Assembly: GCA_963712035.1 (NCBI GenBank)
Contig: CAVQGL010000004.1
Location: 458 to 64,457, forward strand
DNA: 64,000 nt
Source of the DNA: an uncultured Acidobacteriaceae bacterium
GTDB taxonomy: Bacteria > Acidobacteriota > Terriglobia > Terriglobales > Acidobacteriaceae
Direction of reading: 5' to 3'
Made by a program: the position numbers and the translations under genes. Under the pieces are notes generated by a model. It worked only from the letters and a program-made list of their open reading frames with translations, had not been told where the DNA came from and searched no databases. Of the stretch, positions 39,795 to 44,068 are shown piece by piece. The first letter of the stretch is position 1. Every line of letters begins with the position of its first letter.

Positions 39795-40120
39795 AAGTAT
39801 GGCTGTCGTCAAGGAAGCGCCGTTCGTGTTGGACGAAGCCAGGGTCAGCACATTGCCGTGCGCGTCGTAAGTGTAGGTGAGCGTGCCTTCGGGCGTGGCC
39901 TCTGTGACCAGGCGGTCGCGATTGTCGTAAGTGTAGCTGGTCGATCCGCTGGCGTCGGCCATCGAGGCCCGGTTGCCGTGTAGGTGAACGTGACCGTGGG
40001 CTCGCTTAAAGACGGATCTGGCACCTTGGTGAGCAGACGGTTCAGGCTGTCATAGCTATATTTAGTTCGAGTGCTGGGCTCGTGTTTGTCGCAGTTCTCA
40101 TACATGCTTGAGTCCGACAA
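39795..40120 (-). pseudogene. YD/RHS-repeat protein fragment (about 110 codons, frameshifted, truncated at both ends)
   Basis: KYSYDSLNRLLTKV, TFTYTATG, then in another frame YTYDNRDRLVTEATPEGTLTYTYDAHGNVLTL. It runs into the 3' end of the cyclase gene. Confidence 0.6.
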
Positions 40121-40233
40121 GACATATTAGCACTGAGTAAAACTTGTTAGAGAAGAGAGGAGTCTGCTTTGAAAGAAGCAAGTAAGTTAGTTTTCTGTGA
40201 CTAACTCTATTCTGGCACGCGAGTCTTCTTCAC

Positions 40234-41226
40234 CTAAATCGAAGGCGTTGAAAAGGAGAAAGAGATAGAGGTTAGCACTTTCTGGAAGGGTAATGGCCCG
40301 GGGCTGATGATGGTTCTTATCGAATCGAGCAGGCGGCTGATGGGATGGCGGACTGCAGCTGCGCGAAGATCGTCTGCGGTGACATGTAGATAAACTTGTG
40401 TGCTTGTAATGAGGCGATGTCCGAGCAGATCGCGGATGGTAACGAGACCGACGCCGGCACGGACCAGATGAGTTGCAAAGGTGTGGCGCATACGATGCGG
40501 CGAAAGACGAACGCCGATGCGGCTGCGCTGTCCCCACGTGCGCACGCGTTCATAAACTCCGCCACGTGACAACAGTCTTCCGAAACGTGATCGGAAGAAT
40601 GGCGCCGAAGGCAGTGCGGGGCCGCGTGCCTGTACGTATGCACGGAGCAGTTCCGCCAGTTGCGGGTTGAGAGGAATGACGCGTTCATGACCGCCCTTGC
40701 CACGAACGGTGATAGCGAGTTCCTTGAGGTCGACATGACTGTTACGAAGAGAGGCGCACCCGGATGCGCGAATGCCGGTTCCGTACAAGATCGCAAGCAG
40801 TGCGCGATCGCGCAGTCCGATCACGGTCGTGGCCTTCGGCTCAGCCAATGGCCGGCTGACCTGCTCCTGCGAGAGAGCGATGGGCAGCTTGCGGGGCACA
40901 GCCTTGATCGAAGGAAACGTCGCGAGCGGGTTGGCGGAAGGTTCAAGATATCCCATGGCCACCATCGCGCAATAAAAGCGGCGGAGCACAACGACGGCGC
41001 GATTGACCGCGGAGGCGCCGTTATCGCGTACTTCGCGAAGATACTGCACGTAGCCGAGAACATCACGCGCGGTGATTTCGTCGGGCGCGCGATCTGCGCA
41101 CTTGACCTGGACCCACTCGTGAAACTGCTTGAGAGTGTTCTCGTAGGCAACCAGCGTGAGCGGGCGCAGACCTCGCGCAACGCAATGCGTGCGAATGTAG
41201 ACATCGATCCAGAATGACCACTTCGT
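40234..41226 (-). CDS. ritC: Tyrosine recombinase, third of trio (RitC position), lacking a canonical start (ACG at 41224-41226)
   Basis: In-frame N-terminal SAM-like domain KWSFWIDVYIRTHCVARGLRPLTLVAYENTLKQFHEW lies upstream of the GTG used by the ORF track. YGTGIRASG, HRMRHTFATHLVRAGV, LGHRLITSTQVYLHV. GGAGAC lies 5 nt upstream of the ACG. Confidence 0.7.
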   Translation of the reverse strand, partial: TKWSFWIDVYIRTHCVARGLRPLTLVAYENTLKQFHEWVQVKCADRAPDEITARDVLGYVQYLREVRDNGASAVNRAVVVLRRFYCAMVAMGYLEPSANPLATFPSIKAVPRKLPIALSQEQVSRPLAEPKATTVIGLRDRALLAILYGTGIRASGCASLRNSHVDLKELAITVRGKGGHERVIPLNPQLAELLRAYVQARGPALPSAPFFRSRFGRLLSRGGVYERVRTWGQRSRIGVRLSPHRMRHTFATHLVRAGVGLVTIRDLLGHRLITSTQVYLHVTADDLRAAAVRHPISRLLDSIRTIISPGPLPFQKVLTSISFSFSTPSI

Positions 41227-42113
41227 GGCTGGTCTCCGATGGGAAGGGTTCTTACTGCAGCTTGAGTGCGGCCGGGCAGAACGTGCAGGTATACGCCTGT
41301 TTCCTGCGGACTACAATGGCCCATTAAAGATGCGATGACAGCGAGGTCGACACCGCGATCCATCAGATGAGTTGCAAAGCTGTGCCGGAGAGTACGCGGC
41401 GTGATGTCGGGTCGCAGGCCGGCACGAGTCACTGTGTCCTTGACGATCCGGCACACGTCCTTGGCACGCAATCTTCGATGCTTGGCGCTGGTTCGAAACA
41501 GTGGCCCGCGTTTTCCATGCTCGAGAAGATAGGCCAGCAGCTCTGTGTAGAGCGCTTCGGGAATAGGAATCGAACGTGGCCGATCGCCCTTGGCGTGCAG
41601 TACAGTTAACTCGTGACGTTCACGGTTGATCTGCGCTACGTCGAGGGCGCATAACTCATCGGTACGCAGACCACAGCCATAAAGCATCAGCACAACCAGG
41701 CGATCGCGCCGTGCTGTTGGTCCGGCTGCGGACGTTGCCTGCACAAGCTTCGCGGCTTCGTCGAGGGTGAGAGAACTGGGCGCGATCCGCGGCATCGCGT
41801 GCTTGAGGGTAAAGCCATCGAGCACGTTGCGCTCACTGCGGCCACTGCGCCATGCGTAGTCGAGGAAGCCGCGTAGATGGCTCAGATACTTGGCCAAGCT
41901 GGTCTCAGTGCAGCCGGACTCGCGTTCCGCCTCCAGCCAGTGCAAGTAGTCTTCGAGCTGCAAGCGCCACAAGGGAGTATCGGTGCGCAATCCACTCAAC
42001 GCGCGACGCAAGGTACAACGAACATCGATGATCGTTCGCGGAGTCTTGCGTCCGACCTTGTCCAGGTAACTCAGGTAGCCCTCGATCGGAGGATCCATCG
42101 ATGACTGCTTCAT
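40821..42113 (-). CDS. ritB: Tyrosine recombinase, second of trio (RitB position). The ORF as sequenced reads through about 134 extra codons
   Basis: ATG at 42111-42113. YGCGLRTDEL, RTLRHSFATHLMDRGV, MGHCSPQETGVYLHV. The recombinase fold ends near 41223. The remainder overlaps ritC out of frame and looks non-protein-like. Confidence 0.8.
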   Translation of the reverse strand: MKQSSMDPPIEGYLSYLDKVGRKTPRTIIDVRCTLRRALSGLRTDTPLWRLQLEDYLHWLEAERESGCTETSLAKYLSHLRGFLDYAWRSGRSERNVLDGFTLKHAMPRIAPSSLTLDEAAKLVQATSAAGPTARRDRLVVLMLYGCGLRTDELCALDVAQINRERHELTVLHAKGDRPRSIPIPEALYTELLAYLLEHGKRGPLFRTSAKHRRLRAKDVCRIVKDTVTRAGLRPDITPRTLRHSFATHLMDRGVDLAVIASLMGHCSPQETGVYLHVLPGRTQAAVRTLPIGDQPRSGHSGSMSTFARIALREVCARSRWLPTRTLSSSFTSGSRSSAQIARPTKSPRVMFSATCSIFAKYAITAPPRSIAPSLCSAAFIARWWPWDILNLPPTRSRRFLRSRLCPASCPSLSRRSRSAGHWLSRRPRP

Positions 42114-43051
42114 GCCTTCACCTCCTGTTCGGAATGCAGCCAAGCGTTGATGGGATGGAGTTCGATCGCGGCACGCCGCTGTGGATCCGCGATGTGTATG
42201 TAGCGCACCGTGGTCGATATCACCGAGTGACCGAGGACTCGCTGCACCTCGGCAAGATGAACACCTGCTTCCAGAAGATCGGAAGCGCAAGTATGACGGA
42301 ACTGATGGAGGCTGTGCATCGGAACCTGTGCGTTGCGCGAGATGGCATGCACTCCGTTGCTGATGGCGAAGCCTGAAAGGCGCTTGCCGTTGCGGCTTAC
42401 CAGCAATGCCGGCTCATCCAACCTGCCGCTCTGTTCGAGCTGGTTGTGACGCTGCGGCAGATATGCTTCCAGGCAACGCAGCGTAACATCCGGCAACGGC
42501 ACGCAGCGTTCCCGTCCTGTCTTGCGACCATCGATGCGCAGCGTTGCTTCCGAACGATCGAATGCATCGACGTTCAGTCTCTCAAGTTCTCCGCGGCGAA
42601 GCCCGGTGCCATACAGCATGGCAAGAATCGTAACCCACAGATGCGCGCTGTAATCGCCGCGCCGGGTTGCGGCTTGCCGCCACATCGCCTCCATGTGCGC
42701 ATGGTCAATGCGCTTCGGCAGGCGACTGTAAGGTGAGACCTTCGGGCCCTTCATCCAGCGCAGCGGGTTCAGCTTCCAATGTCCCTGCCGAACGAGAAAC
42801 TCCCCGAATCCACGCATCGTGCTCAGTGTTGCGTACACGGTCGCCTTCGATCGAAAACTTGCGCACGCTGCTATGTAGTCGGTGATCAGATCCACGCCGA
42901 TCTGCTCGATCGAGACCCGTGGCCGCCGCTTCTTCAGCCAACGACCCCAACGCTCCAGCCGGGACTCTGTGTATGCAACCGAAGCCTCGCTGACTCCACG
43001 TGCCCCGTACTCCTCCATATATATGTCCAGTAGTCGATCCCATCTCCTCAT
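42110..43051 (-). CDS. ritA: Tyrosine recombinase, first of trio (RitA position)
   Basis: AAGGAGG lies 6 nt before the ATG at 43049-43051. YGTGLRRGEL, HQFRHTCASDLLEAGV, LGHSVISTTVRYIHI. The stop TGA at 42110-42112 overlaps the next ATG. Confidence 0.85.
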   Translation of the reverse strand: MRRWDRLLDIYMEEYGARGVSEASVAYTESRLERWGRWLKKRRPRVSIEQIGVDLITDYIAACASFRSKATVYATLSTMRGFGEFLVRQGHWKLNPLRWMKGPKVSPYSRLPKRIDHAHMEAMWRQAATRRGDYSAHLWVTILAMLYGTGLRRGELERLNVDAFDRSEATLRIDGRKTGRERCVPLPDVTLRCLEAYLPQRHNQLEQSGRLDEPALLVSRNGKRLSGFAISNGVHAISRNAQVPMHSLHQFRHTCASDLLEAGVHLAEVQRVLGHSVISTTVRYIHIADPQRRAAIELHPINAWLHSEQEVKA

Positions 43052-43183
43052 CGCCTTCCTCCTTAAACGTTCAGGGGGCGCGCTCACGCTCGCCCCCTAA
43101 ACGTTATAGAAACAAACAATATGACCTCCAATATGACTCCCTTGGAGGTCGCGATGAGCCCTGAACTGAACTAAACAAAGTTT

Positions 43184-44068
43184 GTGCTGGCTTCAGGCGC
43201 AGCGCCGCAAGTAGCGGCCGAGCCACAGGCGGCGCCAGCGCCGCTGCCCGCGCCAGCCGCGCCACCTGCCACGACCATCAGGAACGATGGCAATCTGGGC
43301 GGGACCATCCCCGGAACTATCCCTGGGGCCATCGCTCCACCGACTATTCCGCAACTGCCGCGCGTGTTAGCGATACCCGCCGTTCCGCCGATCCTTGCCG
43401 TCGATAGCAATAATGATGTGACTTATCGCTCCAGCAGCTTCAACGGCAGTATGGACTTCGCCATTGTTTCCGGCGACTCGGTGACCATGAACGGATCGGA
43501 TGACGACCGCCGTGCGGTGGAAGCGCTGCGAAAGAAAATTTCCGGCGATTTCATTTGGTTCATCCACAACGGAAATGCCTATGTCATCAACGATGTGACA
43601 ACTGTGCAAGGCGCTAAACAGCTTTATGCCCCGATGGACGAACTGGGCAAACAGCAAGAAGAGCTAGGAAAGCAACAAGAAGAACTGGGCAAGCAACAGG
43701 AAGCGCTGGGCAAACAACAGGAAGGCGTTCGGGTAGATGTCCCCGCCAATTTGACGCAAAGGCTACAAGCATTGGAGGCAAAACTCAAGGCGCTGGGCGG
43801 ATCGGCTGACATGGACCAACTCGGTCGTCTTCAAGGCGAACTGGGCGATCTGCAAGGCCAACTTGGATCCTTGCAAGGCAAAGCCGGCGAAGCTCAGGGC
43901 AGGTTGGGCGAGCAGCAAGGCGAGTTAGGACGGAAGCAAGGTGAACTCGGCCGCCGCCAGGGCGAGTTGGGCAGGGAGCAAGCAAGAATCGCACGTGAGG
44001 CGGCGCGCCAAATGCAGGACATCATCAGCAAGGCTCTGAGTAACGGGACTGCGAGACGAGTCGAATAG
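43184..44068 (+). CDS. C-terminal part of a heptad-repeat protein, probably 5'-truncated (recalls C-terminal regions of acidobacterial BlaR1/M56-type proteins)
   Basis: The frame opens only at 43175, right next to the RIT, with no signal peptide or TM. The sequence has a Pro/Ala-rich linker, FAIVSGDSVTMNGSDDD...GDFIWFIHNGNAYVI, then ELGKQQE and QGELGRx heptads. Confidence 0.5.
   Translation: MLASGAAPQVAAEPQAAPAPLPAPAAPPATTIRNDGNLGGTIPGTIPGAIAPPTIPQLPRVLAIPAVPPILAVDSNNDVTYRSSSFNGSMDFAIVSGDSVTMNGSDDDRRAVEALRKKISGDFIWFIHNGNAYVINDVTTVQGAKQLYAPMDELGKQQEELGKQQEELGKQQEALGKQQEGVRVDVPANLTQRLQALEAKLKALGGSADMDQLGRLQGELGDLQGQLGSLQGKAGEAQGRLGEQQGELGRKQGELGRRQGELGREQARIAREAARQMQDIISKALSNGTARRVE
43640..43723 (+). 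repeat. Four tandem 21-bp units encoding (E/A)LGKQQE
   Basis: GAACTGGGCAAACAGCAAGAA / GAGCTAGGAAAGCAACAAGAA / GAACTGGGCAAGCAACAGGAA / GCGCTGGGCAAACAACAGGAA. Confidence 0.9.

Follow-up and report, generated by a model that had tools for sequence, protein, structure and literature searches.

Loss of a shared ritB stop and ritC start signal in a probably inactivated RIT-type element of an uncultured Acidobacteriaceae bacterium

RIT elements carry a trio of tyrosine-recombinase genes, ritA-ritB-ritC (Van Houdt et al. 2009/2012, PMC3414803; Ricker et al. 2013). Short overlaps of 4-8 bp between consecutive open reading frames (ORFs) are characteristic of these trios (PMC3414803), and palindromes of ~50 bp at RIT ends were noted earlier, with a proposed role in mobilisation (PMC5737581). 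The RitA subgroup has been described as having two sequential core-binding domains (PMC8138268); the archetype proteins are 315-410 amino acids (aa) long. Here we analysed a RIT-type copy in a stretch of 64,000 nucleotides (the window) from an uncultured Acidobacteriaceae bacterium (assembly GCA_963712035.1, contig CAVQGL010000004.1, positions 458 to 64,457 of the forward strand). In this copy the overlap between ritA and ritB is intact, and the four bases expected to hold both the ritB stop and the ritC start read ACGA in place of the ATGA or GTGA of its relatives.

At the ritB/ritC junction the coding strand reads CCC ATC GGA GAC CAG CCA CGA AGT in the ritB frame and GCC ACG AAG TGG in the ritC frame. 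An earlier note on this DNA had drawn attention to the ACGA, to a GGAGAC 5 nt upstream of it, to 41225 as the altered base, and to an unbroken ATGA shared by ritA and ritB; all of these are present in the sequence (Table 1). The read-through of ritB, which the note had put at about 134 out-of-frame codons, comes to exactly that number and runs to a TGA at 40823-40821, lengthening the RitB product from 296 to 430 aa. The ritC frame stays open after an in-frame TAG at 41313-41311, and its first ATG, GTG or TTG is the GTG of codon 60 (41049); this codon lies within the SAM-like domain (Pfam residues 8-87), in agreement with the statement that no such codon precedes the domain. No alternative upstream start for ritC was found between the TAG and the ACG, the sole near-cognate codon there being an ATA at 41292. 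The read-through itself ends in GTGA (40821-40824), its TGA overlapping the GTG of ritC codon 135. This arrangement could at most give a RitC fragment with the catalytic domain only, and is probably a coincidence.

To compare the junction with that of related elements, we used 80 loci from a one-genome-per-species scan (RitC identity 57-95%), mostly from Acidobacteriota metagenome-assembled genomes (MAGs), the others from Gamma- and Deltaproteobacteria, Verrucomicrobiota and Planctomycetota. Seven further loci came from JGI metagenomes, searched with a degenerate DNA pattern of the junction in which the first two bases of the start codon were left free. The codon aligned to the ACG was ATG in 75 of the 80 genome loci and GTG in four, and locus L065 had ATGA in a frameshifted gene; ATGA was also found in all seven metagenome loci. 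After extraction of the coding sequences, 85 junctions could be read, comprising 81 ATGA, four GTGA and no ACGA, and in 83 of them the ritC start was preceded, within 16 nt, by a Shine-Dalgarno (SD)-like motif of the GGAG type. Statements on the ritA/ritB junction are restricted to close relatives, as extrapolated ritB starts were unreliable in distant ones.

In a protein search, the ritC translation had 1569 strong homologues, 324 aa long in all but four of the 120 listed. The best match among those listed was 93% identical, and no intact, near-identical RitC was found in the protein collection. All 15 aligned RitC homologues begin with MKW(S/P/T/Q) at the position where the window has T(ACG)KWS. 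The closest RitB homologues are 296 aa long at 92-93% identity, and the RitB extension was absent from the 120 closest RitB clusters (75-94% identical, 249-319 aa, covering the first 67-69% of the 430-aa product). The proposal in the earlier note that one T-to-C change had struck an ancestral ATGA is borne out by the (A/G)TGA of all relatives, by the MKWS start at the ACG and by the length of the RitB homologues. Because no relative has ACGA or a conserved RitB extension (0 of 85 junctions, 0 of 120 RitB clusters), the ACGA is, judged by these alignments, a private and derived state at an otherwise fully conserved signal, and hence a lesion, not a native feature.

We then examined whether base 41225 is real. 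Exact-sequence look-ups located the 430-aa product in three contigs: contig_13513 (272 kb) of the ENA assembly ERZ25039454, evidently the origin of the window, and contigs of the run-level Logan assemblies ERR11523672 and ERR11563597. All three were 100% identical to the window over 2.1-6.5 kb, ACGA included. The Logan assemblies derive from different runs and from a different assembler, their identical stretches measuring 4646 bp and 2111 bp. As the base is common to three assemblies from at least two runs, a simple mis-assembly is unlikely. The window copy differs from its nearest relative at ~10% of sites, a divergence at which a true difference at 41225 is far likelier than a rare consensus error.

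Taken together, we consider it probable (roughly 0.85) that the ACGA is a real and recent inactivating lesion in a decaying RIT-type copy, and that the element is most likely immobile. In intact relatives, as their architecture and general knowledge suggest, ribosomes that end ritB at the TGA would restart, or be recruited, at the overlapping ATG; the GGAG within the ...IG(D/G) codons would aid the ritC start, and the three recombinases would be kept in fixed proportion. The T-to-C transition from ATGA to ACGA abolishes the ritB stop and the ritC start together. Ribosomes on ritB would then fail to terminate at the junction, the out-of-frame codons would give RitB a basic, junk-like tail, and the read-through ribosomes would occlude the ritC initiation site. 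RitC would presumably be made only at trace level from the ACG, or as N-terminally truncated fragments.

The earlier note had left two options, a trio inactivated at one point or a RitC made from ACG beside an extended RitB. Inactivation is the better supported of the two, with several lesions and not one. It is favoured over ACG initiation because the same copy has a 55-nt deletion, RitC E156G and RitB R267C. The deletion took out a conserved palindrome of ~50 bp together with the last eight ritC codons and the stop, and produced the aberrant tail VLTSISFSFSTPSI; it is unique to the window, and is also carried by Logan contig L002. In locus L089 the palindrome reads TTTGCAGTACAGGATGAAGTCGATC-TA-GATCGACTTCATCCTGTACTGCAAA, and in the close acidobacterial relatives it encloses the stop codon of ritC. 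The E156G change of RitC is seen in the window copy only, at a column that the 71 other non-redundant sequences keep invariant, and aligns with the Glu of XerD GLRVSEL, a position that we take to be the conserved R-x-x-E active-site Glu, corresponding to Cre E176. RitB R267C is likewise a private change at an otherwise invariant column, and RitC L126P and RitB L295Q are private among close relatives. Private changes at invariant columns in the window copy number zero in RitA, one in RitB and one in RitC, and 0-5 in the other sequences.

The L295Q change is a second private substitution near the ACGA, 7 nt upstream of it in the spacer between the SD-like site and the start, where ritB codon 295 (41229-41231) has changed from CTG to CAG. 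The two substitutions cluster at the junction; the sequence here is CCTGCC in each of the seven metagenome loci and in the three genome loci nearest to the window copy.

Pairwise ratios of nonsynonymous to synonymous substitution rates (dN/dS) were calculated by the NG86 method. They were 0.06-0.10 for ritA, ritB and ritC, with or without the window copy in the pair. The ritC gene has no internal stop or frameshift, and outside the tail made by the deletion its private changes at six-way conserved sites are M1T, L126P and E156G, versus 8 synonymous ones. With a dS of ~0.32 to the nearest relative, L089, the low dN/dS and the lack of internal stops and frameshifts imply that the disabling events are recent relative to that distance. 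A long-standing pseudogene, or relaxed selection on ritC, was rejected on these ratios and on the few private replacements.

Several points weigh against our conclusion. The dN/dS values show no relaxed selection on ritC and fit a very recent lesion and continued function equally. A single private replacement in a protein at an otherwise invariant column makes the copy no outlier by itself, and is supportive, not significant. The role of the deleted palindrome is putative. If all three assemblies that carry the base are Nanopore-derived, a shared systematic basecalling error is possible, though improbable. Finally, inactivation of this copy is a prediction from its sequence.

An element that is still functional, with a strongly attenuated RitC made from the ACG via the retained GGAGAC and a RitB that tolerates its 134-aa tail, seems to us unlikely. 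In its favour, the SD-like site and its 5-nt spacing have been kept, RitC retains its catalytic R, K, H-x-x-R, H and Y as read directly from the XerD alignment, ritA and ritB are intact in other respects, and the long-branch dN/dS is as low as that of the relatives. In E. coli reporters, ACG yielded detectable Met-initiated protein; however, the codons beyond AUG, GUG, UUG and four near-cognates, a group that includes ACG, gave only ~0.01-1% of the AUG level (bioRxiv 10.1101/063800). The efficiency to be expected of ACG, at most ~1% of that of AUG, would fall still more with ribosomes reading through from ritB, because termination-reinitiation coupling is lost. Also against this reading, none of the 85 relatives uses ACG or any other start outside (A/G)TG, no homologue has the tail, and ritC has also lost its native stop, its C-terminal codons and the conserved hairpin, and carries E156G in the conserved R-x-x-E motif.

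Somewhat less probable is a sequencing or consensus error at 41225, for instance from systematic basecalling in a long-read-only assembly, the true genome having ATGA. The name contig_13513 is similar to contig names in the Nanopore-only Flye/Medaka assemblies of Microflora Danica, and several related MAG loci have frameshifted rit genes that are possibly assembly errors. Against this, the two Logan assemblies reproduce the base within their identical stretches, the change is a substitution and not an indel, the divergence from the nearest relative makes a true difference far likelier a priori, and the further private lesions of the same copy fit real decay. The earlier note had asked that this base be confirmed, and it proved identical in the ENA assembly and both Logan assemblies.

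We give slightly less credence again to the idea that the ACGA could be a selected attenuation switch, in which the ACG would supply ~1% of the usual amount of RitC, the RitB tail would be tolerated, and the element would be near-silent and revertible by one C-to-T change; if true, bacterial ACG initiation would have an example in nature. A purposeful RitB-RitC fusion by programmed -1 frameshifting near the junction is very improbable: the ritC frame is indeed -1 with respect to ritB, whose stop has been lost, but no slippery heptamer of the form X XXY YYZ occurs in the ritB frame from 41402 to 40821, none of the 120 best RitB clusters is near fusion length, and the sole 620-codon ritB ORF among the fetched loci (L013) looks rearranged or mis-assembled.

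Table 1. Features of the RIT-type copy and its right flank, in window coordinates.
Feature	Position	Strand	Description	Located by
Whole RIT-type element	40061..43175	(-)	3115 bp	blastn homology to relatives from ~43178 to 40040; end motifs located
Small GC-rich hairpin	43072..43098	(-)	between left inverted repeat and ritA; retained, one stem mismatch versus relatives	self-inverted blast matches
ritA	42110..43051	(-)	ATG 43051, 313 aa, TGA 42112-42110; AGGAGG ribosome-binding site upstream	Pfam Phage_integrase and Phage_int_SAM_1
ritA/ritB overlap ATGA, intact	42110..42113	(-)	ritA stop and ritB start share four bases; preceded by GGAGGTGAAGGC	
ritB as in homologues	41226..42113	(-)	296 codons, end ...PIGDQP, normal stop gone	
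SD-like GGAGAC for ritC	41232..41237	(-)	inside last ritB codons, 5 nt before ACGA (GGAGAC-CAGCC-ACGA)	
Lesion ACGA (relatives ATGA or GTGA)	41223..41226	(-)	variant base 41225: plus-strand G, coding-strand C	
ritB read-through tail	40821..41225	(-)	134 codons out of frame over ritC, Arg/Ser/Pro-rich, isoelectric point 12	
ritC remnant	40234..41226	(-)	330 codons from ACG, without start codon; E156G, L126P; aberrant tail VLTSISFSFSTPSI after codon 316	
55-nt deletion junction	40274..40277 (40275/40274)	(-)	between TGC microhomologies; relative to L089, L085, L091	
RHS/YD-repeat ORF remnant	39845..40060	(-)	YSYDSLNRL..., 71 codons, in frame with ATG 40105 inside element	

The genes ritA, ritB and ritC are adjacent and co-oriented on the minus strand (43051-40234), and each product has a Phage_integrase domain and an N-terminal SAM-like domain (Pfam). 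Mutual identity of the three proteins is only 26-31%, with a separate set of close homologues for each. The element extends between a left inverted repeat (TTTAGTTCAGTTCAGG...) and a right end (...CGAACTAAA), and the terminal inverted repeats flank the trio, the left one, TTTAGTTCAGTTCAGGGCTC, matching the reverse complement of the right one, TTTAGTTCGAGTGCTGGGCTC; both are kept across loci. The size of the element in relatives is 3143-3300 bp, the closest ones having 3172-3173 bp, as against the 3115 bp of the window copy. A tblastn search of the window with all three proteins revealed no second RIT copy, so that this copy is single within the window, unlike its multi-copy relatives. Signs of mobility for the family are RitC copies of identical score with identical sequence around the junction, placed at different sites with differing flanks within single MAGs (L020-L022, L035/L036/L038 and L058/L060). 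Just outside the left inverted repeat, 6-7 nt vary, often with AAA before them (window 43176-43190: ACAAACTTTG / TTTAGTTC); these variable nucleotides may be part of the recombination core or coupling sequence.

In most relatives (e.g. L089, L005 and L012) the ritC stop codon is overlapped by a hairpin, which in the close acidobacterial ones is a perfect palindrome of ~36-52 bp. In other lineages the arms have another sequence or the stem is shorter, and a few show only a degenerate form or none; those 96-nt segments that contain the hairpin fold with ~-17 to -52 kcal/mol. The arms vary from lineage to lineage but remain complementary, and this suggests a structure with a function in DNA or RNA, such as a terminator or a recombination site.

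The locus with the highest RitC identity to the window, L005 (95%), has DNA homology that starts only inside ritA, at 42421, leaving window positions 42421-43175 uncovered. This implies that its left end and the 5' part of its ritA differ from those of the window copy or are recombinant, in which case the family would be mosaic. In other relatives, genes look broken: ritB is frameshifted with read-through in L065 and L046, ritA and ritB of L059 are shifted relative to the sister copies L058 and L060, ritA is short in L030, ritB is short in L025, and the 620-codon ritB ORF of L013 runs out in RitC sequence. As many of the sources are long-read MAGs, indel errors may account for some of these.

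The genome neighbourhood of the right end was also examined. The right end (...CGA ACT AAA, R-T-K) is followed by an in-frame Y-x-Y-D in ~45 of the 54 loci that have both ends on the contig, a pattern that spans at least four phyla, and the ORF concerned mostly runs for 200-900 codons with further YD motifs. When five right-flank ORFs were compared with Pfam, RHS_repeat was matched by three and toxin-type C-termini were found in two (Colicin_E5 and Peptidase_M76), and L074 had no match. In close relatives, an in-frame ATG lies inside the element end (MYENCDKHEPSTRTK, directly followed by YxYD). The left flank appeared RHS-like, judged by eye, in a few loci only (e.g. L023 and L028). RIT target specificity has been listed as untested (PMC10214605), and the adjacency seen in these flanks suggests either that the elements target YD-repeat codons specifically or that C-terminal cassettes of rhs genes are mobilised with them. 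In the window, the RHS/YD-repeat remnant has a weak RHS_repeat match in the source's own annotation and no Pfam match at E≤0.001; its 71 codons fit a degraded locus.

As an ordinary pseudogenising mutation, the lesion carries little weight in itself. An ATGA overlap is plainly vulnerable at the one base that belongs to its stop and its start alike, and here that base would have been struck in an already decaying mobile element. The practical value lies in annotation: the 430-aa product that public protein sets contain as 'RitB' would be a read-through artefact of a pseudogenised locus in which ritC is uncalled. The comparative data are more useful, as they identify the (A/G)TGA coupling and the hairpin at the ritC stop as conserved features of this RIT family, and the consistent in-frame joining to RHS/YD-repeat toxin genes bears on the question of RIT target specificity.

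Among other transposons with more than one tyrosine recombinase, some of which are target-site specific, Tn554, SE and GInt differ from the window element in having fourth proteins of the TnpC, Srap or GinD type, no gene for which occurs in it (PMC10214605). An identity of the recombinases as chromosomal XerC or XerD was rejected, the best scores being 138-207 bits versus NCBIfam equivalog cut-offs of 330-335; RitC and its homologues extend ~36 residues past the end of the XerD alignment (HPISRLLDSIRTII...PFQK). No reference RIT trio was found in the plasmid collection, where identities were at most 33% among the matches listed and the inspected Bradyrhizobium match was a single recombinase beside an IS91 transposase.

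With RIT elements, the locus shares three adjacent, co-oriented tyrosine-recombinase genes and the terminal inverted repeats, and its family shares the palindromes near the ends and the multiple identical copies in some genomes (L020-L022 and L058-L060). The three mutually distant proteins may represent the distinct RitA, RitB and RitC families, and of the two expected gene overlaps the 4-nt one between ritA and ritB is present. Its first protein is short compared with the RIT archetype, with 313 aa and one recognisable core-binding domain: there is one SAM-like match (residues 17-90), the catalytic domain occupies residues 141-289, and little space is left for a second core-binding domain. 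The window copy departs from RIT elements in that its B/C overlap signal and its 3' palindrome are gone, the A/B overlap being intact; from the comparison of homologous junctions, the B/C (A/G)TGA overlap appears to be ancestral in this copy and to have been lost by mutation. In bacterial operons, overlapping stop and start signals (ATGA/TGATG) serve translational coupling. The relatives resemble such operons in that the ritB stop and the ritC start share ATGA, the SD lies inside the upstream gene, and a single base serves both signals, whereas in the window copy the shared signal is destroyed and nothing points to an alternative coupling. Non-AUG initiation is exemplified in bacteria by the AUU of infC and, to our knowledge, known natural non-canonical starts are conserved among orthologues. 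The ACG of ritC resembles them in being correctly spaced behind an SD-like site, and differs from them in being unique among 86 sequences and in co-occurring with other damage.

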